The translations under genes and the position numbers were made by a program. The notes beneath the pieces were generated by a model. It was not told where the DNA came from. It made no database searches and worked only from the letters and a program-made list of their open reading frames with translations. Positions 14,380 to 48,674 of a DNA stretch of 64,000 nucleotides are shown in pieces. The stretch comes from an uncultured delta proteobacterium (GTDB lineage Bacteria; Myxococcota_A; Polyangia; Fen-1088): NCBI GenBank assembly GCA_963767925.1, contig CAVYGB010000010.1, positions 128,001 through 192,000 of the forward strand. Reading direction: 5' to 3'. Each line of letters opens with the position of its first letter. Within the stretch, counting starts at the first letter, position 1.

Positions 14380-14916
14380 TCACAGCCAGCCCAGGCGCTC
14401 GAGGGTGGCGACAACGCGCTCGGCGCTGACCTCGGGGCTCTCCGTCCCGTCGGACCGGATGGTGATGTCCGGGGTCCGGGGCGGCTCGTAAGGATCGTCG
14501 ATCCCGGTGAAATGCTGGATCTCGCCGGCGCGCGCCCGCCGATAGAGGCCCTTCACGTCGCGACCCTCGAGCACTTCGAGCGGCGCCGTGCAATAGACCA
14601 GGGCGAAGCGATCGATCTTTTTTCGAACCTCGTCACGCACTTCCTCGTAAGGAGAGATCGCGGCCGCGCAGACGAAAACGCCATGGCGACTCAACAACTC
14701 GCAGACCCAGCCGATGCGACGGACGTTGGTATCCCGATCTGCCTTGGAGAAGCCAAGGCCCTTGCTGAGGTTCTCTCTCACGAGATCACCGTCGAGCAAC
14801 TCCGTGGGAACGCCGCGACGTCGCAGGATGTCAGAAACGAGCCGAGCGGCCGTCGACTTGCCGGCCCCGCTCAGGCCCGTAAACCAGATGGTGGCGCCCG
14901 CGCGCTTGGCCTCCAT
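14380..14916 (-). CDS. cysC: Adenylyl-sulfate kinase
   Basis: [45 protein letters not shown]. Confidence 0.96.
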
Positions 14917-15097
14917 GTCTGGTAGATTGCCCTGCGAACCCGCAGCAACGCCAGTCCCGGATGGGCCGGGGCGAGGGGGATGGCGCTCGGGCAGAGAGTG
15001 GGGGCGGCGTCAGGCCCGGCGGTCGGAAAGGTCCGCCGGTGCCGCTGAGAGCCGCGGCCAGGCCTCCCGCTGTCGGACAGCTCGTACATCTCCAGAA

Positions 15098-17454
15098 ATG
15101 TCGCCCTGGGCTTTCTCGAAAACCTCCGCCCCAATGATTGGCTGTCTCGCCGCCCTGCTGGGCGCGGCGGGATGTAGCGAGAAGTCTGCCCCGGCCAGCA
15201 CCGGCCCGGCCGTCACCAGCACGGCCACCACCAGCGCCCCGGTTGCGCCCGACGAGCAGCCCGAGGGCCGCCCGAGCGCCCGCAGCCGGCTCAAGGGCGT
15301 GCGGCCGCTCGTCGTCGAGGCCCGCCGGGCCGAGCTCGACGTGGGCGGCATGTTCATCGACTTCGGCACCGCCGATCAGCTCAAGTACACCGCGGGCGGC
15401 TGGGGCAACGGCTGGGGCGAGCGGCGCACCGAGGGCGACGGGGGGACGACCTACGCCGAGGCGCGGGGCCGGACCCTCCCGGTCCGCCTGTTCCTTTACA
15501 AGGAGAGCGGCTTGCCCCGCCAGGTCGCGGTCCGGCTGCGGACGCGCGGCCCACCCCGCCAGGTCTCGCTGCTGATCGACGGCCAGCCGGTGGGCGAGGC
15601 CCGGGTGGGGCCGGCCTGGAGCACGATGAGCGTGGCCCTCGGTGCCGAGTCGATCCGCCTCGGGCCGGTGGAGCTGGCCCTGGTCTTCGATTCGCCTCCC
15701 GGGCGGGGCGGCCTCGACGTCGACTGGATGTGGCTGGGTCGCTCCCCGGACGGGGTCTTCCCCGAGGCCGGTTCCCGGGTGGCGCCGATGACCTTCGGCG
15801 ATGGCACCCGGCGGGCCCTGCTGGCCCCCACCCCGCGAAGTTATGCCTTCTACCTCGAGGTGCCGCCCCGGGCCTCGCTGGTGTTCGACTACGGCGGCGC
15901 CGCCGGCACCCAGTTCCTGGTGCGCGCGCGCATGGACCGGGGGGCAGGCCCCCGCATCGTCTTCCAGGGGAAGGCCCAGCCGGGGCGCTGGCAGGAGGGG
16001 GTGGTCGACCTGGGGCCGCTGGCCGGTCGGGCCATCAAGCTCGAGCTCATCACCCAGGGCTCGATCTCGGCCGGCTGGGGCGATCCCGAGATCATGGTCC
16101 CGCGCGACCCCGCCCCCCGGACCCCGGCGCCGGTCGCCACCCAGCGCAAGCCGGCCCGCAACGTGATCCTGCTGGTCATCGACACCGTGCGGGCCGACGT
16201 GTTCAAGCCCTTCAACAGCAAGAGCGCCGTGCGCACCCCGAACTTCGAGCGGCTGGCCGAGGAGTCGACCGTCTTCACCAGCGCCTACGCCAACGAGAAC
16301 TGGACCAAGCCGTCGGTGGCGACCATCCTCTCCGGGCTCTATCCGACCACCCACGGCACCAAGGAAGACGGCGACGTGCTCAGCTCGGACGCCCCCCTGC
16401 TGTCCGAGCACCTCAAGCGCAAGTCGTTCGCCACCGCCGCCTTCATCGCCAACGGCTACGTCAGCGACAAGTTCGGGTTCAAGCGCGGCTGGGACGCCTA
16501 CACGAACTACATCCGCGAGAACCGCCCCTCCGAGGCCCAGTACGTCTTTTCCGACGCGCTGGCCTGGATCAACAAGCACACCGACGATCGCTTCTTCCTC
16601 TACCTGCAGACCATCGATCCCCACGTCCCCTACGACCCGCCCTCGGAGTACACCCGCATGTACCACCCCGGCGAATACCGGGGGCGCTTCGGCCGTTCTC
16701 TCGATGGCATCGAGCAGCTCGACATCGCCAGCAAGAAGAAGCCCATGGACCAGGCGGACTGGGAGTACATCCGGGCGCTGTACGACGCCGAGGTCACCTA
16801 CCACGACACCCACATGGGCAAGTTCCTCGACCAGATCGACCAGATGGGCCTGCTCGACGAGACCCTGTTCATCGTGACCAACGACCACGGCGAGGAGCTC
16901 CGGGATCACGGCAAGCTGGGTCACGGCCACTCGCTGTACGATGAGCTGGTGCGCGCGCCCATGTTGATCCGCTACCCCTCGCTGTTCCGGGGCGGCCAGC
17001 GCGTCAGCGAGCCGGTCGAGAACGTCGACCTGTTCCCCACCGTGCTGGAGGCCCTGGGCCTCGAGCCGGTGTCCGACGTGGACGGCGTGTCGCTGCTGCC
17101 CATGCTCGAGGGCAAGCCCCCCTCGGTCCCCAGCTACGCCATCAGCGAGTTTCGCGCGGCTTTCCGCAGCGTGCGGCTGGGCCGCTGGAAGATGATCGCC
17201 GGCCAGGACGGCAACCGCCGCCTGTTCGACATGGAGATCGACCCCGCCGAGCAGGTGGACCAGGCGCGGCGGGCGCCCATCGCCAGCCGGATGTGCGAGC
17301 AACATCTGGCCGAGTTTCTGGCCAGCCCGGCCAAGACCCTGCGGTTCCGGGAGGCAAACGTGCCGCAACGCCGCTTCAAGCCAGGCCTGGTGCAGCAGGA
17401 TCCCGAGCTGCGCAAGCAGCTAGAAGCGCTAGGCTACTTCGGGGGCATGAAAGA

Positions 17455-17458
<4 letters not shown>
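15098..17458 (+). CDS. Lipoprotein with N-terminal beta domains and a non-canonical sulfatase-fold domain
   Basis: Lipobox AAGC; VIDTVRAD, NWTKPSV in place of CxPxR, DPHVPY, NDHGE, GHGHSLY; C-terminal LRKQLEALGY. Start 15098 or 15134. Confidence 0.85.
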
Positions 17459-19598
<2,140 letters not shown>

Positions 19599-19602
<4 letters not shown>

Positions 19603-21578
19603 TCCGCCGCCCGCCCCCCGCGCGACATAACGACCGGAACACGCGCCGCCGAGGTTTCGGGCCGCTGCCCCTGTGCCTGGCCGGCCTGGCGCTCGCCGGC
19701 GCGCTGGCCTGCAACGAGCAGGGGGCGCGCAAGGAGGCGGGCATGATCGTGCTGGGCATCGACGGCATGGACCTGCTGCTCACCCGCACCTATCTGCAGG
19801 AGCGGCGCCTGCCCAACCTCTCGGAGATCGCCCGCGCCGGATCGTTCGTCGAGCTGGGGACCAGCAACCCGCCCCAGAGCCCGGTGGCCTGGTCCCACTT
19901 CATCACCGGCACCACCTCGGCCGCTCACGGCATCTACGACTTCGTCCACCGCGACCCCGCGCAGATGTCCCCCTACCTGTCCACCTCCCAGGTCGAGGAC
20001 TCGGACCTCACGTTGAGCGCCTTCGGCTGGCGCCTGCCCCTCGGATCGCCCGAGATGAAGCTGCTGCGCGAGGGGGCACCCTTCTGGTCGCAGCTCACGG
20101 CGGCGGGCATCCCCGCCACCATCATGAAGATCCCCGCCCACTTCCCCCCTACCGAGGCGCCCGGGTCCCGGACCCTCTCGGGCATGGGCACCCCCGATCT
20201 GCTCGGCACCTACGGGACGTTCCAGTTCCTCACCGACGACCCCGCCTTCCTCGCGCGCAAGCTGAGCGGGGGGATGGTGCACAAGCTGCAACGCCGGGGC
20301 GCGGTCCTGGTGGCCGACCTGCAGGGCCCCCCCAACCCGATGAAGGTCACGCAGCAGCCGATGACCCTCCTGGTGGAGATCGCCCCCAACGCCGCCCGCA
20401 CGGCCGCCCTGGTGCGGCTGGCGGGGACCGAGCGGCTGCTGCGGGCGGGCGAGTGGTCGGACTGGGTGCCCATCGCCTTCAGCCCGGGGTCCCTGGGCTC
20501 GGAGGTGCCGGGCATGGTGCGGCTCTACCTCAAGTCGTTGACCCCCCAGACGCGCCTCTACGTCAGCCCGATCAACATCGACCCACGCAACCCGGCGATG
20601 ACCATCTCCTCGCCCTCCGAGTGGGTGCAGGAGCTGGGCGAGCAGGTGGGGCGCTTTTACACCCAGGGCATGCCCGAGGACACCAAGGCGCTCGAGAACG
20701 GGGTGCTGACTGACGACGAGTTCCTCACCCAGGCCGACCTCATCTTCGACGAGGAGCGCGCCATCCTGGCCAGGGAGCTGCAGGAGTTCAAGGGCGGGCT
20801 GCTGTTCCACTACTTCTCGGTGGTGGACCAGGTGAGCCACATGTTCTTCCAGTCCGCCCTGCCCAACCCCCCGCCCCGGCTGGCCCGCTACACGAAGGTG
20901 CTCCCGCGCATTTACGCCCAGATCGACGAGGTGGTCGGGAAGGTGCGGGCGGCAGTGGGCAAAGACACCGTGATCGTGGTGATGTCCGATCATGGCTTCT
21001 CCCCCTACAAGTGGAAGGTCAACCTGAACACCTGGCTGCAACGCCAGGGCTACCTGACCCTGCGGGAGAAGCCGGGCCCGGGGGCCCTGGGCCACATCGA
21101 TTGGAGCCGGACCCAGGCCTATGCCCTGGGCCTCAACCAGCTCTTCGTCAACCTGCGCGGGCGGGAGGCCGACGGCATCGTCTCGCTCGACGACCGGGGC
21201 GCCCTGCTCGACCGGCTGGCCCGCGACCTCGAGTCCTGGATCGACGACGTCTCGGGCGGGCGGGTCATCTCGGCGACCTTCCGCCCTTCCAGCAGCCGGC
21301 ACCCCGAGCGGGCCCCCGACATGTTGATCGGCTTCGCCAGGGGCTACCGCAGCTCGGACGCCTCCGCCACCGGGCTGCCGGAGCCGGACATGGTGTTCGC
21401 CAACAAGGACAAGTGGAGTGGCGACCACTGCATGGACCCCACCCTGGTGCCGGGGGTGCTGTTCTCCAGCCGCAAGCTCCGCGAGCGCCGGGCGTTTCTG
21501 GTCGACCTGGCCCCCACGATCCTGTCGTATTTCGGTCTGGCTCCGGCCAGTGGTACCGAAGGCAAGGCTCTGTTCTAG
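19599..21578 (+). CDS. Alkaline-phosphatase/NPP superfamily paralogue, predicted (Tat) lipoprotein
   Basis: TRRRGF followed by lipobox ALAC; LGIDG, PPQSPVAWSHFITG, DQVSHMF, SDHG, WSGDHC. Confidence 0.88.
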
Positions 21579-21606: not shown

Positions 21607-21915
21607 ATGAGCAAGATCAAGATCCCGAAGTCGTACAAGCAGCGACTGACCGAGGTCGGCCGCAAGTTCAAGTTTCCCTCCGACGAGGCCTTCGCGATGC
21701 ACCTCATCGACCGGGGCCTGCGCCAGTTCCAGCTCCCGCAGCTCTCGGCGCCGGTCGAAACGAAGATCGCCCAGGTGGTCGAGGACCACGGCTACTCCTC
21801 GGCCGACGAGGTGATCGAGCACCTCCTGGAGCGCGGCCTGCGGGCTTACGAAGAGCCGGAGAACGATCCAAAGAAGCTCGAGGCGCGGCTGAGAGGGCTC
21901 GGATACATCGACTGA
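21607..21915 (+). CDS. Small cytoplasmic protein with tandem RHH/CopG-like repeat and C-terminal RLRGLGYID
   Basis: RBS GGGAG; internal repeat FPSDEAFAMHLIDRGL / YSSADEVIEHLLERGL. Confidence 0.75.
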   Translation: MSKIKIPKSYKQRLTEVGRKFKFPSDEAFAMHLIDRGLRQFQLPQLSAPVETKIAQVVEDHGYSSADEVIEHLLERGLRAYEEPENDPKKLEARLRGLGYID

Positions 21916-21919
21916 TCCG

Positions 21920-22741
21920 ATGGACGAGCTCGCGTCCATGTCCCGGCAGGTGGCCGAAGCGCTCCTCTGGCCATTCGACATCCTGCCGCGCCGGCTCGGG
22001 CTCCTCGTCTTTTCCGTCGTGAGCGGCCTGCTGATGTTGCTGGTGGTCGGCAAGGCCACCCCCCAGGCTCGCCTCAAACACGCGCGCGAGCAGATGTCCT
22101 CGGCCATCTACGAGCTGCGGATCTTCCTCGACAACCCGCGGCGGATCTTCGTGGCCCAGGGGCGGCTCGTCCTGTGGAGCCTGAACTACCTGGCTTACCT
22201 GCTGCCCGCCTTCGCCCTGCTCCTGCCGGTGCTGGCCCTGCTGTTCGCCCCCCTGGAGATCCGCTACGGGCTGACGCCGCTGTCCCCGGGGACCGACGCC
22301 CTCGTCCGCGTCGACCTGCGGGCCCCTCTGGCCGCCGCCGAGCAGGCCACCGTGGAGGGGGGCACCGCCGTCCGGCTGGTCGCCCCTCCCGTGCTGGTGG
22401 CCGACGAGCGGGTGCTCTACCTGCGCCTCGGCATCCTCGAAAAGGGGCTGCACCGGGTGCGCATCAGCGCCCCCGGCTGGCAGGTGGAGAAGATCCTGTC
22501 GGCCGAGGGCGGCGGCGACCGGCCGGTCAGCGCCGAGCGGCGGGCCGGGCTGGGCCAGCTCTTCGCCCTCGGCAACGAGCCCCCCCTCCCCTCGGATGGC
22601 CCGGTGGCGGCGGTGGTTGTCACCCACCTGGAGCGCGAGCAGAGCTGGGCCGGGATCGAGATGCCCTGGTGGATCTTCTGGCTGCTGGTGGCGACGGTGG
22701 TGGCGCTGGCCTTCAAGAAACGCTTTGGAGTGACACTGTGA
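21920..22741 (+). CDS. Three-TM membrane protein, DUF106/EMC3/TMCO1-like, with an inserted soluble domain
   Basis: Amphipathic N-helix, TM1, coiled coil, Pro-containing TM2, beta-rich insert, C-terminal [22 protein letters not shown]. Confidence 0.55.
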
Positions 22742-23313
22742 CGACCAGATCGGAGACGATAACCGTCGTGTCGGGGCTGCCCCGCTCGGGCACCTCGATG
22801 ATGATGCGGGCGATGCAGGCCGGCGGCCTGCCCGTGCTGGCCGATGGCCTGCGCGAGGCCGACGAGGACAACCCCCACGGCTACTTCGAGCTCGAGCTGG
22901 TCAAGAAGACGCTGCACGACGGCACCTGGATCGCCGGAGCCCGGGGCAAGGTGGTCAAGGTGATCGCCCGGCTGCTCGTCGATCTGCCGGCCGGCGAGCG
23001 CTACAAGATCGTGTTCATGCGGCGGGACCTCGACGAGGTGCTGCGCTCGCAACGCAAGATGCTCGAGCGGCGGGGCGAGCCGCCCGGCCCCCCCGACGAG
23101 GAGATGCGCAGCTTGCTGCTGGGCCATATCTTCGAGACCGAAGATTGGCTGCGGGCCCGGCCCGAGATGGAGACCCTCTACGTCTCCTACAACCGCATGG
23201 TTGTCGAGCCCCGCCCCCAGGCCGAACGCATCAACCGGTTCTTTGGCGGGACCCTCGACGTCGACGAGATGGTCGCCGCCGTCGACGCCAGCCTCTACCG
23301 CCAGCGCAAGTGA
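22738..23313 (+). CDS. PAPS-dependent sulfotransferase
   Basis: GTGA overlap; 5'-PSB loop [20 protein letters not shown], 3'-PB motif [12 protein letters not shown]. No signal peptide. Confidence 0.9.
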
Positions 23314-23364: not shown

Positions 23365-24084
23365 TCAGTTGGGCGGCTGCACCAGGGCGGGTCCGCCGGG
23401 TGAGCGGGCGCGCTGCTGGTTGTTGTTTCGCTCGAGGCGGCGCTGCATCCGCTCGGCCTGGCGGACGTCCCGGAGCTGCTTCATGCGGGCCTCGCCCAGC
23501 ATGCTGCGCACGGCGGTCTCGGTCTTGTCCTCCAGCTCGTCGATCTCGTCGTCCGCCTGGGAGGCGCTCTTGATCCCCGAGCGCATCTCCTCGATCACCC
23601 GCGAACGGGCGGAGTTCAGGGAGGTGTACATGTTCTGGATGGCCCCCTGCTCGGTCGAGGAGAGCGAGAGCGCGCGGGTCAGCCGCTCCTGCTGGCGCTG
23701 GTCGCGCTCGATGTCTTCCTTGGCTTTCTCCGCCAGCTTGGTCTGGCGATCCATCTCCTGCAGCTTGGTCATGGCGCCCTTGAGGTGGGAGAGCCCCTCC
23801 GAAGTCTCGAGGGCCTGACCGAGCGCGGCGGTGGGCGGCGCCCCCTCGGTCGGCTCCGCTGGCGCGGGCGCCTTGGGATCGGGGCGCGGCACCGTCAGGC
23901 GCGGCACCGGCGCCGCGGCAACGAACGGCCGGCTGCCCGGGCTGGCGAGAGAATCGGCGACCGGTTGCGCGCTCAGCTTCTCGGTCAGCGCCGCGACCTG
24001 GCCCGACAGGCGGATCAGGAAGGCGCCTTCCACGATGGCGGCAATGGTCAGGACGAATACGGCAATGATTCCGACCAGACGCAT
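23365..24084 (-). CDS. Hypothetical membrane-anchored coiled-coil protein
   Basis: N-terminal TM, Pro linker, charged helical domain; host-like codon usage. Confidence 0.7.
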   Translation of the reverse strand: MRLVGIIAVFVLTIAAIVEGAFLIRLSGQVAALTEKLSAQPVADSLASPGSRPFVAAAPVPRLTVPRPDPKAPAPAEPTEGAPPTAALGQALETSEGLSHLKGAMTKLQEMDRQTKLAEKAKEDIERDQRQQERLTRALSLSSTEQGAIQNMYTSLNSARSRVIEEMRSGIKSASQADDEIDELEDKTETAVRSMLGEARMKQLRDVRQAERMQRRLERNNNQQRARSPGGPALVQPPN

Positions 24085-24248: not shown

Positions 24249-25220
24249 TCAGTCGGGGAGGAGGGACCAGTCGATGGCGGCGGCCAGGAGGCGGATGCCG
24301 TCGTCGGAGAGGCGGGCGGCGGCGGTCTCTACGGCGAAGAAGCCGACTCGTTTGGCGGGGGCGAGGAGGGCGGTCATCTGGGCCCCTTTCGGGTAGGCGA
24401 AGATGGCGGCGCGGTCGGGCTCGCCGGCGACGTTGGCGATGCGGATGGCGGTGGCAGCGGGATTTCCCCAGGCCAGGTTCGACTCTGCCGTGACAACCGA
24501 CACGAGGCCGGTGAGACCGGCGGCCAGCGGGTGGGTGCTGTCGACGATCTCGATCTGCTCGGCGTCGCCGCCGCCGTAGTCGGTGTCTTCCTCGCCGCCG
24601 ACCATGGCCAGGTTGTCGAACAGGCTGTATTCGAGGCTGATCACCGGCACCGGGACGGTGCGGTACTTGTTGGCCACCATGCCCGACGCGACGGATCCGG
24701 CGATCACGATGAGGTGCGTGTTTACCAGATCGACCGCGCCGCTGTCGTCGCGCAGCCGAATGGAGTAGCCGAGCAGGTGGGTGGCCAGCAGGGTCCGCAC
24801 GGCGGTGTCGCCGGGGCCGAGCGCGCCGGTGTCACCGACGACGAGCTGGACCACCTTGGGCAAGGCCGCCTCGGGCGCGGTGTCCCCGACCTCGGGCGCG
24901 AGATCGGCCGGGGGCGCCAGGTCCGCGGCCGCATCGGGTGGCGCGGGCGCATCGGCCGGGTTGGCGTCGGCGGGGCGATCGACGAGGCGGTCGACCGGAG
25001 CGTCGATCGAGCCGCCAGCCCCGCCTCCTCCCGCATCGGGCGCCGGCCGGCCGGCGGTACCCACCGTACCTGCACCATCGTTACCGCCGTCGGGCCGGTC
25101 CACCCCCCGGGTGTCGCCACCCAGGGTCAGCGAACCATCGACGTCGACCCGATCGACCGGCTGCGGGGCGCAGGAGCACGCGACCAGCACGGCGACGGTG
25201 AGACCGCGTATCGTGGACAT
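24249..25220 (-). CDS. Hypothetical lipoprotein with Asp/Pro-rich linker and C-terminal alpha/beta domain
   Basis: RBS GAGG, signal ending LVAC, DAG/DAP/DLAP low-complexity linker. Confidence 0.75.
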   Translation of the reverse strand: MSTIRGLTVAVLVACSCAPQPVDRVDVDGSLTLGGDTRGVDRPDGGNDGAGTVGTAGRPAPDAGGGGAGGSIDAPVDRLVDRPADANPADAPAPPDAAADLAPPADLAPEVGDTAPEAALPKVVQLVVGDTGALGPGDTAVRTLLATHLLGYSIRLRDDSGAVDLVNTHLIVIAGSVASGMVANKYRTVPVPVISLEYSLFDNLAMVGGEEDTDYGGGDAEQIEIVDSTHPLAAGLTGLVSVVTAESNLAWGNPAATAIRIANVAGEPDRAAIFAYPKGAQMTALLAPAKRVGFFAVETAAARLSDDGIRLLAAAIDWSLLPD

Positions 25221-25574: not shown

Positions 25575-26287
<713 letters not shown>

Positions 26288-26291
<4 letters not shown>

Positions 26292-27514
26292 GGGCGGCGG
26301 GGCTGGCGCTGCTGGCGCTCCTGCTGGCCGGCTGCGGCCGCGCGCCCCCCGGGGAGCTGGCGGCGCCGGCCGGCCCGGCCCCGGACGCGCTGCGGGTGGT
26401 GCGGGGCACCCTCGAGGACCGCTTCCTGCTGACCGGGGAGCTCGAGGCGGTGACCTCGCAGAACCTCACCGTCCCCCAGACCCCCGCCTGGTCGGTCTCG
26501 ATCCGCTGGCTGGCGCCCGACGGCGCCCAGGTCGAGAAGGGGGACAGGGTCGTGGAGTTCGACGCCTCCAGCTTCACCTCGGCTCTCGACGACAAGCGGC
26601 TGGCGGTGGTGCGGGCGGAGGGCGAGCTGACCAGCGAAGCGGCCCGGGTGAAGGCGGCGGTCGCCGACAAGGAGATGGAGGTCTCCCGGCGGCGAGCCGA
26701 TCTCGACAAGGCCGAGGTCGAGGTGAACGTCCCGCCCGATCTCTACTCCCGGCGCCTGTTTCAGGAGAAGCAGCTCGCCGTCGACCGGCAGCGGGACGCG
26801 CTCGCCAAGGCCGAGGAGGACCTGGCCGCCCACCGCCGGGCCGGAACGCTCGAGCGCAAGGTCAAGTCCCTCACCGTGACCCGGGCCGAGCGGGAGCTGA
26901 CCGAGCTGCGCCAGCGGCTCGAGGACCTGGTGCTGCGCGCCCCCCGCGCCGGCCTGGTGCAGATCGGGCTCAACCCGCGGGAGGGGCGCAAGTTCCTGGT
27001 GGGCGACCAGTCCCACCCAGGCTGGCCAGTGGCGTCGATGCCCGATCTGTCGGCCATGCAGGTGCGAGCGCGCCTGCACGACGTCGACGACGGGACCATC
27101 CGGGAAGGGATGCCGGCCGAATGCGTGCTCGACGCCTACCCCGGGCGGATCTGGAAGGGGACGCTGCGGATCGTGAGCCCCATCGCCCGGACCGACGGGA
27201 CCCGGGACGGCACCCGGCGCTTCTTCGACGTGCTGGTGGCGCTCGAGCGGACCGACGCGGCCGTCATGCGGCCGGGCATGTCGGTGCGGATCGAGGTGAT
27301 GCGCCGCCGGGCCCGGGACGTCCTGCTGGTACCCCGGGTCGCCCTGCGGGCCAGCGGCGGCAAGACCCACGTCCGCCTGGGCGCGGGCGGCCAGGGGGAC
27401 GTCCAGGCCGTCGAGATCGACTGGTGCACGGCCACCACCTGCGTGGTCCGGACCGGCGTCCGCGAAGGGATGACCCTCCAGCCCGGCGTCCCCGCCGCGA
27501 AGGAGCGCTCGTGA
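26288..27514 (+). CDS. Periplasmic adaptor (HlyD/MacA family) 1, lipoprotein
   Basis: Lipobox [32 protein letters not shown]. Confidence 0.88.
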
Positions 27515-28764
27515 GGCGCGGGCGGGGCCTGGCGCGGCTCGGGGTGGGCGTGCTTTTCCTCCTGGCCCTGGCCTGCGCGCGGGGCAACCTCGATCGGCAG
27601 CGGTCGGCGCCGGCGGTGCGCCAGGACCTGGTCCAGGACGTCGAGGTGACCGGGACCCTGAAGTCTCTCGAGTCCGAGGCGGTCGGACCACCGCCCACGG
27701 TGACCGAGCTCTGGGAGTTCAAGATCGTCCGCATGGCGCCCGAAGGCGCCCGGGTCAAGACCGGCGACGAGGTGATCGCCTTCGAGACGTCGGAGCTGGA
27801 GCGCAAGCTGCACGACTACGAGAACGAGGTCGCCTCGGTGACCGAGCAGCTCGGCAAGAGCCGCTCGGAGGGCGCCCTGGCCGGGGCCAACGACCAGCTC
27901 GAGCTGGCCGACGCGGAGGCCAAGCGGCGCAAGGCCGAGCTCAAGGCCGACAAGCCGGCCGACCTGACCGCCGAGCTGTCGGTCAAGGTGTCGGCCATCG
28001 AGCGGGAGATGGCCCGCCGCGAGGTCGAGTTCCGGCGCGCCCGCGACGCCGCCCGGCGGACGCAGGAGCGCTCGGATCAGGCGGTGCTGGCCAGCTTGCT
28101 CGAGCGGGCCCGGGGCCGGGTGGCGAGCATCCGCCGCTTCATCGCGGACATGTCGGTCAAGTCCGCCCGGGACGGGACGGTGGTCTACAAGCAGAACTGG
28201 CGGGGCGAGAAGATGAAGCCGGGGGACGGCACCTGGCGGGGCGAGACCGTGCTGGAGATCGCCTCGCTCGACAAGATGGCGGCCCAGGGGCTCGTCGACG
28301 AGGTCGACGCCAGCAAGGTCAGCGTGGGCCAGCGGGTCGGGCTGCGCCTGGAGTCCCACCCCGACCAGGAATATGCCGGCTTCGTCGAGCGGGTGGCCCC
28401 CCTGGTGCGGACCGAGTCGCACGAGTCGCGGGTCAAGGTGGTGGAGCTGGAGCTGCGCCTCGCCAGCACCGACGCCGTCCTCATGCGGCCGGGGATGCGC
28501 TTTCGCGGGCGCATCGAGATCGCCCGCATCCCCGGCGTCTTGCAGGTCCCGCTGCAGGCGGTGGTCAGCAGCGCGGGCGGGCCCACCGTGCGCAAGGTCG
28601 ACGGCCGCTCGGCCCGGCCGGTGCGGGTCACCCTGGGCCGGCGCAGCCGGGAGATGGTGGAGATCAAGGGCGGGCTGCAGGCCGGCGACAAGGTCCTGCT
28701 GCGCAGCCCCCCGGGGGACAACCTCGGCAAGGACGGCAGCGGCATGCGCCTGGGGGCGTCGTGA
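27511..28764 (+). CDS. Periplasmic adaptor 2, lipoprotein
   Basis: GTGA overlap, lipobox [24 protein letters not shown]. Confidence 0.88.
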
Positions 28765-30011
28765 GGCCACCGCGACCGCTGCTGGCGGCGGCCCTGACCA
28801 CCCTCCTGCTGGCGGGGGCCTGCGGCCGCGACCGGGAGGCGGAGGTGCCGGTGGTGACGGTGCGCAAGCAGACCTTCTCCCGGGTCGTCGAGGCCGACGG
28901 CTATCTGCGCCCGGTGAAGGCGACGCCGCTCTCGGTCCCCTCGGACGCCGACATCCCCCTGCGCATCACCTGGCTGGCCCGCGACGGGGCCGCCGTGAAG
29001 AAGGGCGAGGTGGTGGCCCGCTTCGACGACCTCGAGCTGCGCGCCCGGCTGGCCGACGGACAGTCCGACAAGCAGGTAGCCGCCGCCAAGCAGACGCGCG
29101 AGGCGGTGCTGCTCGACACGGCGACCCGGGACCGCCGGCGCACCACCGAGGCCGCCGGCCGCGAGCTGTCGGTGACCCGATCGTTCCAGCCCCGCGACAG
29201 CAGCATCTTCTCGCGCGACCAGATCGTGGAGAGCGCGATCGACGAGGAGCTGCAGAACGCCAAGGTCGATCACGCCCGGGCCAGCGAGACCATCGACCGG
29301 CGGCTGGGCGGCAACAAGCTGGCCCTCATCGGGGTGGAGGCCCGCAAGGCCGAGGAGGCCATCCGGCGGGCCAACCAGGGGCTCACCGGCCTGGAGGTGA
29401 GGGTCCCCGAGGACGGCGTGTTCAGCCTCAAGCGGGGCTGGATGGGGGCCACCTTGCAGGTGGGGGACACGGTCTGGCAGGGCATGAGCATCGGCGAGCT
29501 GTCCCGCATGGAGGAGCTCGAGGCGGAGGTGTTCGTGCTGGAGGTGGAGGCGGCCGGGCTGGCCGGCGGCCGGCGGGCCGAGGTCGTGGTCGAGGCCCAG
29601 GCCGGGCGGGTGTTTCCCGGGAAGATCAAGCAGGTCGAGACGGTGGCCAAGCGGCGCCAGCAGAAGTCGCCCACCCAGTACTTCGGGGTCGTGTTGACCC
29701 TCGCGCGGAGCGATCCGGCCCTCATGAAGCCCGGGCAGACGGTGCGGGCCCGCCTGTTCCTGCACGAGCAGCAGGCGCTCGTGTTGCCCCGCCCCGCGCT
29801 GCACGATCGGGACGGCCGCTGGATCGTCTACCGGCGCGAGGCGGGCGGGACCTTCGCCCCGGTGCCGGTCAAGATCGGCCCCTCCACCGCCGGCGTCTGC
29901 ACCATCGAATCCGGCCTGAAAGAGAACGACGTGGTGGCCCTGCGCGATCCCGGGCGAGCCCCCGGCGACCTGCTGGCCAGCCCCGGCACCCGCTCCCGCC
30001 CCGCCCGCTGA
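28761..30011 (+). CDS. Periplasmic adaptor 3, lipoprotein
   Basis: GTGA overlap, lipobox AGAC, DGAAVKKGEVVARFD, MKPGQ. Confidence 0.88.
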   Translation: MRPPRPLLAAALTTLLLAGACGRDREAEVPVVTVRKQTFSRVVEADGYLRPVKATPLSVPSDADIPLRITWLARDGAAVKKGEVVARFDDLELRARLADGQSDKQVAAAKQTREAVLLDTATRDRRRTTEAAGRELSVTRSFQPRDSSIFSRDQIVESAIDEELQNAKVDHARASETIDRRLGGNKLALIGVEARKAEEAIRRANQGLTGLEVRVPEDGVFSLKRGWMGATLQVGDTVWQGMSIGELSRMEELEAEVFVLEVEAAGLAGGRRAEVVVEAQAGRVFPGKIKQVETVAKRRQQKSPTQYFGVVLTLARSDPALMKPGQTVRARLFLHEQQALVLPRPALHDRDGRWIVYRREAGGTFAPVPVKIGPSTAGVCTIESGLKENDVVALRDPGRAPGDLLASPGTRSRPAR

Positions 30012-30017
30012 ACCCCC

Positions 30018-31241
30018 ATGAAAGCCCTCGACGCCCTCCTGTTCGCCCTCGAGAACCTCTCCTCGCGCCGCCTGCGCACGGGGCTGTCCACCCTGGGGAT
30101 GATGTTCGGGGTGGCGGCTGTCATCGCCATGCTCTCCATCGGCGCCGGCGCCGAGCGGCGGGCGCTCGAGATGATCGAGCGGCTCGGCATCCAGAACGTG
30201 CTCGTCAAGTCCAAGGAGGTGCCCCCCTCGGAGCGGGCCGAGGCGCGCAAGAAGTCCATGGGCCTCGCCCGCCGCGACGCCGCCGCCATCGCCGAGGCGG
30301 TGCCCCACGTGGCCCTGGTAGCGCCCCGGGCCAAGGTGGAGGCCTACAAGATCATCTCCGACGGAGAGAAGGCCCAGGCCCGCATCTGGGGCGTCACCCA
30401 CCGCCACTCCGAGGCCGCCCGCCTCGACCTGCTCGAGGGGCGGTTCTTCGACGAGGACGACGACCGCACCCACGCCCAGGTCTGTGTCATCGGGGCGGGC
30501 GTGCGGCGCGATCTGTTCGCGGCCGGCGAGGCGGTCGGCCGCTTCGTCAAGGTCAACGACCTGTGGCTGCGGGTGATCGGGGTGCTGGCCCCCGACGCCT
30601 TCGGGGCGCGCGGGGGCGGCGCCGAGGGAGACGGCGACATCTACCTGCCGCTCGCCACCTTGACCCGCAAGCTCGAGCGCGACCCGCTCGACCCGCCCCT
30701 CGACGAGATCGTCGTGCGGCTCGACCGCAACGCCGTCCCCCACGAGAGCGGGGCCGTCATCGCCGGGCTGCTGAGCCAGCTCCACGGCGGGGTGGACGAC
30801 TACGAGATCGTCGTGCCCGAGGCGCTGCTGGCCCAGAGCCGGGAGACGCAGCGGATCTTCAGCATCGTCATGGGCTGCATCGCCGGCATCTCGCTCCTGG
30901 TGGGCGGCATCGGGATCATGAACATCATGCTGGCCTCGGTCTTCGAGCAGACGCGCGAGATCGGGGTCCGGCGCGCGGTGGGGGCCCTCCGCCGCGACAT
31001 CCGCTTCCAGTTCCTCGTCGAGTCGTTCCTGGTGGCGGGGCTGGGCGGCGCCTGCGGGGTCGGACTGGGGCTGGGCATATCCTACGTGGTGGCCACCTAC
31101 GCCGGCTGGCCCACCGTGGTGACGCCGCTGGCGATCCTCCTCTCGACCGGCGTCTCGGGCGCGGTGGGCCTGTTCTCCGGTCTCTACCCCGCCATCCGGG
31201 CCAGCCGGCTCGACCCCATCGAGGCACTCGCGCACCAATGA
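30018..31241 (+). CDS. ABC transporter permease (MacB/FtsX family)
   Basis: RTGLSTLGMMFGVAAVIAM, ISLLVGGIGIMNIM, EIGVRRAVGA, YPAIRASRLDPIEAL. Confidence 0.95.
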   Translation: MKALDALLFALENLSSRRLRTGLSTLGMMFGVAAVIAMLSIGAGAERRALEMIERLGIQNVLVKSKEVPPSERAEARKKSMGLARRDAAAIAEAVPHVALVAPRAKVEAYKIISDGEKAQARIWGVTHRHSEAARLDLLEGRFFDEDDDRTHAQVCVIGAGVRRDLFAAGEAVGRFVKVNDLWLRVIGVLAPDAFGARGGGAEGDGDIYLPLATLTRKLERDPLDPPLDEIVVRLDRNAVPHESGAVIAGLLSQLHGGVDDYEIVVPEALLAQSRETQRIFSIVMGCIAGISLLVGGIGIMNIMLASVFEQTREIGVRRAVGALRRDIRFQFLVESFLVAGLGGACGVGLGLGISYVVATYAGWPTVVTPLAILLSTGVSGAVGLFSGLYPAIRASRLDPIEALAHQ

Positions 31242-32833
31242 AGACGACCCGTCCCGCCCCCCTCCTCGCGCTGCTGGCCCTGGCCACCGCCCCGCTCGCC
31301 CCGCTGCAGGCCCAGCCTCCCGCCGCCGCGACCCCCGCCCCTTACGTCGCGCCGGAGTACATCCGCAAGCCCCCCACCCTGCCCCCCCACCTGGCGGATC
31401 AGAAGGCGCGGCAGCTCACCCTCTCCGAGGCGATCGAGACCTCCCTGCGGCGCAACCTCGCCCTGGCCCTGGTGCGCGAGCAGGTGCGGGCGGTCGACAC
31501 CGGGCCCGCCCTCGCCGGATCGGCCTTCGAGCCGGTGCTCTCCGGCTCGGTGGGCCGGGGGACCTCCCGCTCACCCCCCAGCACCCTCCAGGAGGGGGAG
31601 GCCGGCCGCGTGTTCGAGAGCACGCGCGACGAGTGGTCCCTCTCGCTCGCCCAGCGGCTGCCCACCGGCACCGAGCTGCGCCTCGGCTTCCTCGACAGCC
31701 GCTTCGAGAGCGCGCTCGGCACCGCGGTGGCCCCCGAGGTCTTCCGCTCGAGCCTCTCGCTCGATCTGGTGCAGCCGCTGCTGCGCGACTTCTCCTTCTC
31801 CGGGCGGATCCAGCAGGCGCCGGTCCTGCGCGCCGAGTTCAGCAGCGCGACCGCCCGCGAGGATGCCCGCCTGCGAGCCATGTTGACCGTGAAGGCCACC
31901 GAGGACGCCTACTGGGGCCTGGTCGAGAGCTGGAAGGCCTACGAGGTCAACCTCGGCGCGCACCGCCTGGCCGAGGACCAGCTCGCCCTGACCCGACGGC
32001 AGATCGCGGCCGGCGTGTTGCCCGACTCCGATCTGATCGGCGTCGAGGGGACCCTGGCCCAGCGCCAGGTGGCGCTGGTGCGGGGAGAGGCCCAGATCGA
32101 GCGGGCCGCCGACACCCTGCGCGTGCTGCTGAACCTGCCCCCGGCCGACTGGGCGGCGCCGCTGCTGCCGACCGACGCCCCGGGCTTCGCCCACGTGGAG
32201 GTGGCGTTCGACAAGGCGCTGGAGCGGGCCGTCGCCCTGCGCCCCGAGCTGGGGAGCGTGGCGATAAACCTGGAGCAGATCGCCCTCGACCTGGAGGTGG
32301 CCCGCAACAGCCGGCTGCCCCGGCTGGACCTGCGGGCGGGGATCGGCTCGCTGGGCCAGGACGAACGTCACGACCGCACCCTCGAGCAGGTGCGCCGTGC
32401 CACCGGGCAGCAATGGAACCTGGGGTTGGCCTTCGCCTGGGCGCCCTTGCAGGGCGCGGGCCGGGCCGAGGTGGCCCGGCTGGGCTCGGCGATGCGCGGA
32501 AACGCCCTCGAGCGCGAGCAGATCCTGCTGACCGTGCGCTCCGAGATCCGGGAGGCCCTGCGGGCCATCGCCACCGCCGAGCGGCAGATCCACGCCTCGG
32601 CCAAGTTCCGCGACCTGGCCGAGCGGAGCCTCGACGTCGAACAGCGCCGCTTCATCAACGGCCTGTCGAGCAACTTCATCGTGGCCCAGCGCCAGGCCGA
32701 GCTGGCCGAGGCCCGCCTGGCCGAGCTGGAGGCGCTGATCCAGCACGAGCGGGCCAGCTCCGGGCTGCAGCTCGCCACCGGCGAGCTGCTCGAGGCCCGG
32801 AACCTCCGGTTCGACCTGCGCCCCGGGGGCTGA
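31238..32833 (+). CDS. TolC-family outer membrane efflux protein
   Basis: Signal peptide, LTLSEAIETSLRRN, LVQPLLR, RLPRLDL, terminal LATGELL. Confidence 0.9.
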   Translation: MKTTRPAPLLALLALATAPLAPLQAQPPAAATPAPYVAPEYIRKPPTLPPHLADQKARQLTLSEAIETSLRRNLALALVREQVRAVDTGPALAGSAFEPVLSGSVGRGTSRSPPSTLQEGEAGRVFESTRDEWSLSLAQRLPTGTELRLGFLDSRFESALGTAVAPEVFRSSLSLDLVQPLLRDFSFSGRIQQAPVLRAEFSSATAREDARLRAMLTVKATEDAYWGLVESWKAYEVNLGAHRLAEDQLALTRRQIAAGVLPDSDLIGVEGTLAQRQVALVRGEAQIERAADTLRVLLNLPPADWAAPLLPTDAPGFAHVEVAFDKALERAVALRPELGSVAINLEQIALDLEVARNSRLPRLDLRAGIGSLGQDERHDRTLEQVRRATGQQWNLGLAFAWAPLQGAGRAEVARLGSAMRGNALEREQILLTVRSEIREALRAIATAERQIHASAKFRDLAERSLDVEQRRFINGLSSNFIVAQRQAELAEARLAELEALIQHERASSGLQLATGELLEARNLRFDLRPGG

Positions 32834-32946
32834 TCGCGCCGCGCTGGCACGCCGCCGCGCGGCCCGCCGGACAGGCCTCAGGATCGGAGCCCTTTCCTCT
32901 CCCTTTCCCCTACCTCTCCGTCGGTCCTCGTGCACAATGCTCGACT

Positions 32947-34353
32947 GTGCTTCCGAAGACCGACGCCCCGGGGCCAGCCGCGCCCAGGTGGCCCCCCCAG
33001 ATTCGCTACATCATCGGCAACGAAGCCTGCGAGCGTTTCAGCTTCTACGGCATGCGGAACATCCTGGTGGTGTTCCTGGCGGGCTACCTGCTCACCGACC
33101 TGCCGGCCGACGCGCGCGACACGCGGGCCCGCCAGATCTTCCACCTCTTCGTCTTCCTGGTCTATTTCTCCCCCCTGCTCGGGGGCTGGCTGGCCGACCG
33201 CTTCTGGGGCAAATACCGCACCATCCTCTGGCTGTCGCTGGTGTATTGCCTGGGGCACGCCTGCCTGGCGATCTTCGACGACAGCAAGGCCGGCTTTTAC
33301 ACCGGCCTGCTGCTGATCGCCCTCGGCGCCGGGGGCATCAAGCCCACCATCTCGGCCTTCGTGGGCGATCAGTTCACGGGCGCCCAGAAGGCCCAGGTGA
33401 CGACCGTGTACGGGGCCTTCTACTGGTCGATCAACCTCGGCTCGCTGACCGCGTCGCTCCTGATCCCCAAGCTGCTGCGGCACTTCGGACCGGCGGTCGC
33501 CTTCGGCCTGCCCGGCGTGTTGATGCTGGCCTCGACGGTGATCTTCTGGCTGGGCCGCCGCCACTACCACATCGCCCCGCCCACCGGCCCCAACCCCGAC
33601 AGCCTGGGCAACGTGCTCATGACGGCGCTGCGCAACCGCAAGCGCTCGCGGGCGGCCGGGCGCAGCCTCCTCGACGGCGCCCTCGAGGTCCACCCCCGGG
33701 TGGCGGTCGAGGGGGCCCGGGCCATGTTGCGGATCGTCCGCATCTTCGCCTTCATCCCCTTCTTCTGGGCGCTGTTCGACCAGAAGGCCTCGACCTGGGT
33801 GCTGCAGGCCCGGCGCATGGATCGGGAGATCGGGCCCTTCACCTTCGAACCGGCCCAGCTCCAGTTCATCAACCCGGCCCTCATCATGATCCTCATCCCG
33901 ATCATGACCGGGTTCGTCTACCCGCTGGTGGCCCGGGTCGGCATCCGCCCCACCCCTTTGCGGCGGATGACGCTGGGCATGTTCATGGCGGGGTTGGCCT
34001 TCGTGCTGACCGCCATGATCGAGCAGCGGCTCGACCAGGGGCAACAGCTCTCGGTGCTCTGGCAGCTCGGGCCCTACGTGGCCCTCACGGTGGCGGAGAT
34101 CCTCGTCTCCATCACCGGGCTGGAGTTCGCTTACACCCAGGCCCCTCCGGCGATGAAGGGGACCATCATGAGCCTGTGGCTCGTCACCACGGCGGTCGGC
34201 AACCTCGTCGTGGCGCTGCTGGCGGCGAAGCTGAACTTCTTCTCCGGCGCGGGCGCCTTCCTGTTTTACGCCGTGCTGGTCTCGCTGGCCGGTGTGGGCC
34301 TGGCCCTGGTGGCCCGGCGCCACGTCACCACCGAGTTCTTCCGCGAGAGCTGA
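32947..34353 (+). CDS. POT/PTR proton-dependent oligopeptide transporter
   Basis: NEACERFSFYGMR, GGWLADRFWG, FYWSINLGS, GLEFAYTQAP. Confidence 0.95.
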   Translation: MLPKTDAPGPAAPRWPPQIRYIIGNEACERFSFYGMRNILVVFLAGYLLTDLPADARDTRARQIFHLFVFLVYFSPLLGGWLADRFWGKYRTILWLSLVYCLGHACLAIFDDSKAGFYTGLLLIALGAGGIKPTISAFVGDQFTGAQKAQVTTVYGAFYWSINLGSLTASLLIPKLLRHFGPAVAFGLPGVLMLASTVIFWLGRRHYHIAPPTGPNPDSLGNVLMTALRNRKRSRAAGRSLLDGALEVHPRVAVEGARAMLRIVRIFAFIPFFWALFDQKASTWVLQARRMDREIGPFTFEPAQLQFINPALIMILIPIMTGFVYPLVARVGIRPTPLRRMTLGMFMAGLAFVLTAMIEQRLDQGQQLSVLWQLGPYVALTVAEILVSITGLEFAYTQAPPAMKGTIMSLWLVTTAVGNLVVALLAAKLNFFSGAGAFLFYAVLVSLAGVGLALVARRHVTTEFFRES

Positions 34354-35794: not shown

Positions 35795-35851
35795 GGCGCT
35801 TGAAGGTATAGTGGGTGAGCCGTGCTGCCACGACATGTGACGGTGTCCACG

Positions 35852-40793: not shown

Positions 40794-42502
<1,709 letters not shown>

Positions 42503-42506
<4 letters not shown>

Positions 42507-43363
42507 CGGGGTGCCGGGAGCATGGTTGTGTAGGTGATGGTGCCGGGCCGCACGAACACGCCCACGCTGGCGATGCGGCGCTGGTCGGAGGCGAGCCAGC
42601 CGCTCACGCTGATCGGTCCGGTGGGCAGGTTGATCATGCCCGCCCGTCCCGAGCTGTCGGTGACGTCGACGCTGAACGAGGGGACCTTCTTGACCAGGTA
42701 AAACGGGGCGGTGGCGATGTCGGCGTCGTCGCTCGTGAGGCTCACCCCGTCGGCGGGCCGGAGCAGGCAGTCGTAAGAGCCGAGCATGAGGTGGCCGCGC
42801 TCGGGGACGATGGGCCGCCCGCCCTGGGCGGCGAAGAAGGCCAGCTCGCGGTCGGCCATCAGCGGCAGGGAGGGGAACTCGCGATCACCGCTGACCGGTG
42901 GGTAAAAGAAGTACACGCCCGGCATGCGGCCCGGAGGCCCGAACTCGACGAACCCGTCGAAGCCGGTGTCGAGCTCGAAGGCGAGGGCGCCAGCCGCGTC
43001 GCTGACCATGCCGCTGGCCAGCGGGCGGGCGCAGTCGAAGTCGAGCTTGTTACAGGCCCGCCCGGTGACGCCGCCGATCGGCGCGTCGGTGACCAGGTCC
43101 CGCAGGCGAAAGACCACCGACGCCTTGCGAGGCGCCGGCTCGGGCCAGGTGACCCCGCCAAGGCAGCTCCAGGCCGGGTTCGGCTGGCACACCGACTGGA
43201 CGCACACGGCGTCGGCGAAGGCCTGGTCGGCCCCGTCCTGGCAGTCGGCGTCGATCCGGCACTGCTGCCGGTAGGGCTCTACCAGCAAGCTGCAAGATGC
43301 AGAGAGGAGGGCGACGGAAATCCCCAGCGCCCGTTCGAGGAGCCGGCGTTCGCGCAATGTCAT
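42503..43363 (-). CDS. Cys-containing myxobacterial lipoprotein
   Basis: Lipobox-like SASC, QCRIDADC, WSCL, CNKLDFDC; ATGA overlap with the kinase. Confidence 0.75.
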
Positions 43364-43790
43364 CGTTCCCCCGTGACCATGAGGTTGGTACAAGCGAAGA
43401 CCGTCCACGCCGCCGCGGGGAGAGTCTCGTGAGGGTTACGCTCCGACCACCGCCCGGTTTCTCTGTCATGCGCCACCTCGGCCAGACGCATGGGGGCCGG
43501 CCCGTATCGTACCTCAGCCCCTATCTTGTTCAAGCCAAAGTGCACGCAAACGCACGGCCCTGACGATGCCAAACGATTACAAGACCGCATCGCGAACGCA
43601 TCGGAATCGTGGCCGCTTTCGCTCAGCGCGCGCGTCCTCTCCTTCGCCGCGGACTGCCTGCGCTTTCGTCGCGGGCGGAGCGCGCTGCTCGCCGGTTCGC
43701 GTGGTCCTACCTTTCCCGACGCCGACGGTGATTTTCGGTGGCGTGCGGTTCCTTGACGAGCACCCAGGTCCCGAGGTCACTAGAACGTGG

Positions 43791-48666: not shown

Positions 48667-48674
48667 GATGGGCC

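Follow-up and report, generated by a model that had tools for sequence, protein, structure and literature searches.

The proteins of the Oxa1 superfamily ease the crossing of short hydrophilic segments that lie beside a transmembrane (TM) helix, according to the accessible parts of PMC5868721 and PMC8887752. Members of the DUF106 type act as heterodimers with a small membrane partner, as is described in the accessible text of the same two sources and of bioRxiv 10.1101/2020.12.20.422553. In the parts of PMC5868721, PMC8887752 and PMC7618853 that are accessible, this three-TM type is assigned to archaea and eukaryotes, with the five-TM YidC as its bacterial counterpart, and the last of the three states that it is open whether the ancestral core had three or five TM helices. 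The present analysis deals with a bacterial gene that encodes a three-TM protein of this layout, called the target here. It is located in a stretch of 64,000 nucleotides (the window), i.e., positions 128,001 to 192,000 of contig CAVYGB010000010.1 of the GenBank assembly GCA_963767925.1, which stems from an uncultured delta proteobacterium (Myxococcota_A, Polyangia, Fen-1088). The positions of the target gene and its neighbours are listed in Table 1.

Archaeal Ylp1 (MJ0480, DUF106, PDB entry 5c8j) has the same layout as the target, i.e., an N-terminal peripheral helix, TM1, a helical hairpin, TM2, TM3 and a basic C-terminal tail, with a core of three TM helices. Unlike Ylp1, the target has a bacterial host, and a domain of about 130 residues, predicted to be immunoglobulin (Ig)-like, takes the place of the short TM2-TM3 loop. 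In addition, it is not a housekeeping protein, its distribution is patchy, it is fixed in one operon, and it lies below the cut-off of PF01956 (EMC3_TMCO1). The next system is TMCO1, which works at the Sec61 translocon together with a small partner subunit, lacks an Ig-like insert and is found outside of enzyme operons. Two chains, 7tut chain 8 and 6w6l chain 6, are most probably TMCO1, as judged from the entry titles and the chain length, and the sequence identity to these chains is 6-7%. Get1/WRB and EMC3, which are core subunits of insertases of the endoplasmic reticulum, are also among the closest known systems. YidC carries a conserved arginine in its groove. This arginine and a five-TM core characterize bacterial YidC (PF02096; YidC of B. 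halodurans, PDB entry 3wo7), whereas the target has three TM helices, lacks a conserved charged TM residue and was not matched by PF02096. A description of a bacterial DUF106-type family or of the gene cassette described below was not found in the accessible literature, which excluded subscription journals and supplements. The target is rated as a bacterial, insert-bearing and operon-dedicated branch of the Oxa1 superfamily.

The placement was derived from sequence and fold evidence, which, taken together, make it very likely that the target is an Oxa1-superfamily member of the three-TM DUF106 type, i.e., the type of archaeal Ylp1/MJ0480, TMCO1, EMC3 and Get1. A broad alignment of 105 family members (A2) was compared with 177,635 distinct PDB sequences, and MJ0480 was the sole significant match (E 1e-8, 38.3 bits). 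Positions 6-120 of A2 align to residues 7-125 of MJ0480, and the terminal TM helix (A2 positions 248-272) is weakly aligned to residues 173-197, with the elements in identical order. With insert-free relatives added (alignment A4), the MJ0480 match improved to E 3e-12 (49.9 bits). Apart from MJ0480 and Ig-like proteins, no PDB sequence scored better than E 0.2 in the family profile searches. In Pfam, PF01956 was the commonest lead and was matched by 10 of the 105 members at E ≤ 0.1; other families were each matched by three members at most. Three sub-threshold PF01956 matches were also seen when 22 representatives were scanned. The best score was that of member P0105 with 24.7 bits (E 2.2e-5). 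Because the gathering cut-off of 27.1 bits was never reached, the target family is best called a sister family inside the superfamily and not a member of PF01956. The JGI product name of member P0188 is "uncharacterized membrane protein (DUF106 family)", and in one ESM-Atlas neighbour cluster 17% of the members carry PF01956. The earlier note on this DNA, made from the sequence alone, had pointed to a resemblance to DUF106, EMC3 and TMCO1; the two MJ0480 matches and the PF01956 leads support this resemblance as a real homology that goes beyond a shared layout.

The fold was compared with Foldseek. With the full-length model, the matches were Ig-like domains, obtained via the insert only, and none of them reached E ≤ 1e-3. 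For this reason, an insert-free relative was modelled. Two natural relatives without the insert had been found in the phylum search, one of 149 amino acids (L029:5473-5922) and one of 142 amino acids (L030:5057-5485). They were tied to the family by hmmsearch with E-values of 2e-10 and 8e-8, respectively, and for the former hhalign gave a probability of 96.6% and E 5e-10 against the family. The 149-amino-acid form was modelled on A4 with a predicted local distance difference test score (pLDDT) of 95.4 and a predicted template-modelling score (pTM) of 0.82, and it showed the same order of elements as the target. A word search with this short form yielded three close homologues, and an order-level search yielded 5 of 48 genomes; since short-form homologues are few, the model rests mainly on the long-form rows of A4. 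The top Foldseek match was chain 8 of 7tut, an entry that published work describes as the multipass translocon, with a probability of 1.00, template-modelling scores of 0.68 (query) and 0.59 (target), a root-mean-square deviation of 3.4 and E 0.09. Chain 6 of 6w6l, an entry of the ribosome-TMCO1 translocon, was found at rank 8, and Get1/Get2 chains followed lower. The two translocon matches cover 136-138 of the 149 residues. The earlier note had named in advance two outcomes that would speak against it, the lack of any Oxa1-superfamily match and another topology. What was found instead was the match to MJ0480 and a protein with three TM helices.

The coding status and the layout of the target were also analyzed. 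In the mechanical list of open reading frames (ORFs) of the window, the target ORF starts with ATG and is translated over 273 codons. Because such lists are noisy at the genomic GC content of about 72%, the GC content at the codon positions was checked. In the target frame it was 0.93 at the third and 0.46 at the second position, and a sliding frame plot placed the coding signal exactly in this frame, from about position 21900 to 22650. Only 4 nt separate the end of the small upstream gene from the target ATG, and the target stop codon and the GTG start codon of the next gene share the sequence GTGA at 22738-22741.

An AlphaFold2 model was built with 20 homologues and had a mean pLDDT of 89.3 and a pTM of 0.77. 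It contains helices at residues 2-20, 24-46 (TM1), 49-68, 73-117 and 250-265 (TM3), of which 49-68 and 73-117 make up a helical hairpin that is continuous with TM2. Residues 126-234 form a domain rich in strands, and the basic tail KKRFGVTL follows TM3. The first helix corresponds to H0 in the Oxa1/SecY nomenclature, as used in the accessible part of bioRxiv 10.1101/2020.12.20.422553. The three hydrophobic segments of a hydropathy scan coincide with TM1, TM2 and TM3 of the model. All elements that the earlier note had listed, i.e., the amphipathic helix, TM1, the coiled coil, the proline-containing TM2, the insert and the terminal TM helix, were thus located where it had placed them.

The conservation is highest in a few positions. 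Among the 105 members, W250 is kept in 98%, R169, K191, E220 and G245 in 90-92%, R207 in 83% and S32 in TM1 in 79%. Further well-conserved positions are E65/R67 in the tip of the helical hairpin, A79/Q80 and Y90, and the TM2 prolines P96, P103 and P111 are invariant in the 20 close homologues. The residues R24-R25 ahead of TM1 are not conserved in the family consensus. The helical hairpin and the C-terminal tail of the target are rich in lysine and arginine, and this charge distribution alone fits a topology with the N-terminus outside and the C-terminus inside. The helical hairpin would then be cytoplasmic and the Ig-like domain periplasmic; the latter is predicted because N-out/C-in is the usual topology of the superfamily.

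In the full-length Foldseek search, the insert matched the N-domain of cyclomaltodextrinase, S-layer domains of SbsC and Fabs, with E-values from 4e-3 to 3e-2 and probabilities of up to 1.0. The top Ig-like rows had an E-value of 4e-3 and probabilities of 0.99-1.0. In the profile search of A2 against the PDB, filamin repeats came next (E 0.056), and PF00630 was matched by 3 of the 105 members at E ≤ 0.1. The L029 and L030 relatives lack this insert.

Next, the size and distribution of the family were analyzed. Scans of the target protein against Pfam and NCBIfam gave no family match. A word-indexed search yielded 23 homologues, most of which have 52-88% identity and a length of 267-275 amino acids; two shorter forms and one partial match are included, and all entries named by their source are called "hypothetical protein". 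Twenty of the 23 were used for a profile (A1). A search of 1.84 billion cluster representatives with A1 retrieved 1752 of them at E ≤ 1e-3, of which 1134 remained at E ≤ 1e-10 and 120 at E ≤ 1e-30; each of them represents a cluster at 50% identity. A length of about 270 amino acids was found in nearly all of the best 150 of the 1752 representatives. The gene is present in 6 of 89 genomes of the order of the window and, at E ≤ 1e-5, in 43 of 401 genomes of a phylum sample (35 of the 339 high-quality ones). The named related records are metagenome-assembled genomes of Myxococcota, and the automatic labels of ESM-Atlas neighbour clusters are Acidobacteriota, Aminicenantota and Planctomycetota. 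Taken together, the family is large, widespread and patchy. A separate, canonical YidC is encoded on another contig of the genome of the window (PF02096, 181.9 bits).

To characterize the gene neighbourhood, 20 kb around 20 divergent homologues of the phylum were taken and compared with the proteins of the window. In the window, the cassette is encoded on the plus strand in the order AlkP-superfamily enzyme A, AlkP-superfamily enzyme B, a small ribbon-helix-helix (RHH)-like protein, the target and a small sulfotransferase of the type dependent on 3'-phosphoadenosine 5'-phosphosulfate (PAPS). The comparison is based on 21 distinct long-form loci (L001, L002 and L009-L028, with L012 being the same place as L002 and counted once); in L002/L012 and L021 the locus ends within enzyme A or ahead of it. 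A homologue of enzyme A is found in all 21 loci, and L014 is the only one of them without a separate enzyme B. In the window, the start of enzyme B overlaps the stop of enzyme A. The N-terminus of this enzyme B is of an export type, i.e., RRRGF followed by a hydrophobic stretch that ends in cysteine, which suggests that enzyme B is periplasmic. The gene for the RHH-like protein ends directly 5' of the target gene in the window and in 20 of the 21 long-form loci, again with L014 as the exception, and the protein always terminates with [RK]L[RK]GLGYI[SDE] before the stop codon. Besides the window, 19 of the 21 loci have a homologue of the sulfotransferase gene, and in 16 of these loci it lies directly 3' of the target gene. 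A phmmer search of enzyme A against the PDB gave no match, and that of the sulfotransferase of the window gave one weak match, SULT2B1 (E 0.0088).

Some further observations were made in the long-form loci. The RHH-like protein of the window contains two RHH-like repeats; most of its relatives have 64-67 amino acids and one repeat, and a second motif, G-Y-[AS]-[ST], is also kept. L014:9110-12600 (minus strand) harbours a reduced cassette, which consists of enzyme A, the target and the sulfotransferase, is translationally coupled, and is devoid of enzyme B and the RHH-like gene. An open frame of 1072 amino acids at this locus (G170/L014) had been considered as a fusion of enzyme A and the target. 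This was ruled out, as the two use separate frames and their stop and start codons overlap in GTGA. A restriction of the conserved tip of the helical hairpin to loci with the RHH-like gene was also considered, but L014, which has kept the tip, is a counter-example.

The N-terminus of enzyme A turned out to contain a conserved membrane element. It is composed of a basic stretch, a hydrophobic stretch and A-x-A, which together resemble a signal peptide, followed by Y-[IV]-G-P-G-A-G, a TM helix, W/F/Y-P, a second basic stretch and the catalytic GLDG motif. In a six-frame motif scan, the window and 19 long-form loci each contained one copy of this Tyr hairpin. With the general form Y-[IV]-G-P-G-x-G, it is found in 24 of 24 assessable loci, i.e., the window, 19 long-form loci and all four variant loci described below; L002/L012 and L021 (cut by the locus end) and L031 (masked) are left out of this count. 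The 19 aligned hairpin-bearing sequences have 29-68% overall identity to the copy in the window, and none of them deviates at A26, A28, Y29, G31, P32, G33, A34, G35 or A37. The motif suggests that signal peptidase I cuts just before the tyrosine and that a tail or turn of a few residues, including this tyrosine, lies on the outer side. The AlkP domain of enzyme A would stay in the cytoplasm, as expected from the positive-inside rule.

Weaker matches of the phylum search led to four variant loci (L029, L030, L032 and L033). The DUF106-like protein of the variant has 149 amino acids without an insert or about 257 amino acids with a different insert. In all four loci the Tyr hairpin is encoded by a separate gene for 90-145 amino acids, which is located directly upstream of the DUF106-like gene, and its product contains Y-I/V-G-P-G-P-G, a TM helix, a basic stretch and an acidic tail. 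In L029, L032 and L033 the hairpin gene and the DUF106-like gene are followed by the gene for a Sulfotransfer_3 protein (PF13469) of 370-390 amino acids. The modules span L029:3736-7033, L032:4027-6432 (minus strand) and L033:3903-7902 (minus strand). An aryl-sulfotransferase (ASST, PF14269/PF05935) is encoded upstream of the hairpin in L029 and L033, the two of these three loci in which the ORF at this place was scanned. The ASST of L029 has an N-terminal signal anchor, and the sulfotransferase of L029 has none. The RHH-like gene is absent from all four variant loci, and with tblastn an AlkP enzyme was not detected in any of them; the forms without the RHH-like gene have a different tip of the helical hairpin. 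In the PDB, the nearest named relatives of the variant sulfotransferases are weak ones; protein-tyrosine sulfotransferase 1 is among them, with non-significant E-values of 0.01-0.02. From the comparison of both module types it follows that the constant core consists of the Tyr hairpin and the DUF106-like protein (24 of 24 assessable loci). This core is nearly always joined by a PAPS-type sulfotransferase, and the outward-facing enzyme is interchangeable. It is new that the membrane proteins of the ASST-type loci are the DUF106-like protein and the Tyr hairpin known from enzyme A.

These results bear on the function of the target. On the basis of homology and gene linkage, the chances are about even that the target inserts, or permanently holds, the Tyr hairpin anchor and is in this way the membrane core of a dedicated envelope module. 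A dedicated role is favoured because of the patchy distribution and the presence of a canonical YidC, and the target is thus probably not a general insertase. The hairpin is regarded as the client or partner because no other membrane element with a very short translocated segment accompanies the target gene in every case. In the favoured model, the A-x-A-Y-[IV]-G-P-G-x-G hairpin and TM helix at the N-terminus of enzyme A would be a client or a permanent partner, and a hairpin anchor with few translocated residues would be the kind of segment that Oxa1-type grooves handle. By inserting or holding this anchor, the target would link components on the cytoplasmic side with an enzyme in the periplasm. 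The former would be the translationally coupled sulfotransferase, the domain of enzyme A and possibly the RHH-like protein, bound at the tip of the helical hairpin. The periplasmic enzyme, i.e., enzyme B in the window and the ASST in the variant, would probably dock on the Ig-like domain, so that this domain and the conserved tip would be the two docking sites.

Several observations weigh against the placement or the role proposed here. None of the 105 family members reaches the PF01956 cut-off, the target itself (P0001) was unmatched at E ≤ 0.1, and a PF01956 search of the whole genome at E ≤ 10 found nothing. A conserved charge was not found in the TM helices of the 105 members, where the only conserved polar residues are the small set S32, S/T35, N89/Y90 and S258. 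The most conserved residues lie in the tip of the helical hairpin and in the Ig-like domain, which fits a scaffold or binding role at least equally well. The known partners of DUF106-type proteins named in the accessible part of bioRxiv 10.1101/2020.12.20.422553 (EMC6, Get2 and Elp1) have three TM helices and are not two-helix hairpins, and the housekeeping YidC could insert the Tyr hairpin. The sulfotransferase is not universal: a homologue was not detected in the long-form loci L010 and L022, and in L030 the pair of hairpin and DUF106-like gene stands alone, beside a TetR gene and without a sulfotransferase. Last, all compared loci stem from one phylum and are not independent.

Other explanations were weighed against the same evidence. 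It is very improbable that the layout arose by convergence and that the target is a three-TM coiled-coil protein unrelated to the Oxa1 superfamily. Such a look-alike would explain that the Pfam cut-off was never reached and that the Foldseek E-value of at best 0.09 is not significant, and helical models can reach middling Z-scores by their arrangement alone. However, the profile match at E 3e-12 is specific to MJ0480 among all PDB sequences searched, all elements occur in identical order, and the two top structural matches are the same translocon protein and cover nearly the whole short form. Hardly more credible is a second general-purpose membrane insertase alongside YidC. Membership in the Oxa1 superfamily would fit, but the gene is missing from most genomes of the order and the phylum sample, its operon context is fixed, and a canonical YidC is already present. 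A receptor role is considered quite unlikely. The Ig-like domain would serve as a ligand sensor, and the tip of the helical hairpin would bind the GLGYI[SDE] tail and hold an RHH-like transcription factor at the membrane, thereby controlling the operon. This would be in accord with the position of the RHH-like gene directly 5' of the target gene and its invariant tail, with the tip E-x-R-L-F-x-D-x-P being among the best-conserved parts of the target, and with the different tip of the variants that lack the RHH-like gene. Yet L014 retains the tip motif without an adjoining RHH-like gene, DNA binding of the RHH-like protein is putative, with a weak DUF7120 match, and the pairing with the Tyr hairpin and the sulfotransferase would be left unexplained.

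Two further explanations involve sulfate transfer, and both are regarded as rather unlikely. In one of them, which sharpens the relay with a dedicated translocase suggested in the earlier note, the PAPS-type sulfotransferase would sulfate the tyrosine of the hairpin, the Oxa1-type groove would pass the segment through the membrane, and the periplasmic enzyme would transfer the sulfuryl group to an acceptor in the envelope. The invariant tyrosine indeed lies in an uncharged turn of seven residues directly after the predicted A-x-A signal-peptidase site, the order hairpin, DUF106-like protein, sulfotransferase is common to both module types, and three conserved basic residues of the Ig-like domain could bind an anion. 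The non-significant similarity of the variant sulfotransferases to protein-tyrosine sulfotransferase 1 points in the same direction. Caprazamycin provides a precedent, as its sulfation proceeds in two steps via a phenolic carrier (Cpz8/Cpz4). This carrier is a small soluble phenol, and the process takes place in a single compartment. Like Cpz8/Cpz4, the variant module pairs a PAPS-type sulfotransferase with an ASST, but here a membrane would separate the two enzymes, with two membrane proteins between them. The outward partner in the variant is an ASST; according to the accessible part of PMC13426309, ASSTs use phenolic sulfates as donors and their natural substrates are unknown. However, both the sulfation of the tyrosine and the return of the inserted turn to the cytoplasm are hypothetical, repeated shuttling of a segment is not known for insertases, no acidic residues are found near the tyrosine in the 19-sequence alignment, the periplasmic enzyme of the main cassette is AlkP-like and not an ASST, and L030, L010 and L022 have no sulfotransferase. 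In the other explanation the groove would move something other than protein, i.e., the sulfated or phosphorylated head group of a lipid-linked intermediate or of a lipid, in a scramblase-like manner, between the AlkP-like enzymes, and an insertase fold would have been re-used for the decoration of the envelope. Two paralogous AlkP-like enzymes predicted on opposite membrane faces, a sulfotransferase in the operon and conserved basic residues in the periplasmic domain would suit this role. But the conserved core includes no gene for lipid or glycan biosynthesis, the TM helices have no conserved charged residue, and the strict pairing with the Tyr hairpin is left unexplained. The insertion or holding of the Tyr hairpin anchor is the reading that is preferred here.

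Table 1. Coordinates of the target, its parts and the neighbouring genes in the window.
Feature	Positions	Strand	Evidence
DUF106/Ylp1-like membrane protein (very likely Oxa1 superfamily) with Ig-like insert, 273 amino acids	21920..22741	+	ORF, translation, frame plot, AlphaFold2 model, MJ0480 profile matches
N-terminal peripheral helix, residues 2-20, H0 in Oxa1/SecY nomenclature	21923..21979	+	model; aligns to MJ0480 from residue 7
TM1, residues 24-46	21989..22057	+	model, hydropathy, conservation
Helical hairpin at residues 49-83, predicted on the cytoplasmic side; its tip E65-x-R67-L-F-x-D71-x-P73 and A79-Q80 are conserved	22064..22168	+	
TM2, about residues 84-117, proline-rich, conserved Y90	22169..22270	+	model, hydropathy, conservation
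Probable Ig/filamin-like beta-sandwich insert, residues 118-247, predicted periplasmic	22271..22660	+	model, Foldseek, conservation
TM3, residues 248-265, plus basic C-terminal tail 266-273	22661..22738	+	model, conservation; weakly aligned to MJ0480 173-197
Sulfatase-family protein, accessory neighbour, sulfatase domain at residues 482-782 of the 914-amino-acid reading	14714..17458	+	PF00884 E 6.6e-43
AlkP-superfamily enzyme A, 715 amino acids	17455..19602	+	PF01663 E 9.5e-35; start codon, motif scan, 19-locus alignment
Tyr-bearing turn YVGPGAG (enzyme A residues 29-35) and following TM helix	17539..17637	+	19-sequence alignment, motif scan
AlkP-superfamily enzyme B, 659 amino acids, predicted periplasmic	19599..21578	+	PF01663 E 7.2e-27
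Small RHH-like protein, 102 amino acids, ends RLRGLGYID	21607..21915	+	weak DUF7120 match E 2.6e-4
Small PAPS-type sulfotransferase, 191 amino acids, P-loop GLPRSGTS	22738..23313	+	PF13469 E 8.2e-8, PF00685 E 2e-7

The genes around the cassette were also inspected. About 480 N-terminal residues of the sulfatase-family protein have no family match, and its true start is probably further downstream, because a lipoprotein-like signal is found near residue 140 of the long reading. With tblastn this gene was seen in four related loci only (L001, L010, L015 and L023). On the other side of the cassette, two convergent genes without a Pfam family are encoded on the minus strand (23365-24084 and 24249-25220). 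The product of the first combines an N-terminal TM helix, a linker rich in proline and alanine and a coiled coil; its match to GltJ is weak and far under the cut-off (E 6.5e-5), and a homologue of this gene follows the sulfotransferase in L001. The region 25593-32833 comprises a tripartite efflux operon of the MacB type with the unusual feature of three tandem HlyD-family adaptor paralogues (26288-27514, 27511-28764 and 28761-30011), which are flanked by the ABC ATPase (25593-26291) on one side and the MacB permease (30018-31241) on the other. An outer-membrane factor (31238-32833) and a POT-family transporter (32830-34353) follow. Further away, a Ser/Thr protein kinase (PF00069) is encoded at 40794-42884 on the minus strand, and large ORFs without family match are found at 35819-37561, 46087-48753 and 42503-43435.

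Taken together, the family is a large bacterial family with three TM helices, and its 1752 clusters bear directly on the question of whether the ancestral core of the superfamily had three or five. In addition, the cassette would be a case in which an insertase fold has been co-opted by a dedicated enzyme module. The pairing of the Tyr hairpin with a sulfotransferase, together with the ASST in the variant, gives a testable idea of how sulfation outside of the cytoplasm is supplied. If the sulfuryl relay via the tyrosine were true, it would explain the donor supply of PAPS-independent periplasmic sulfotransferases.

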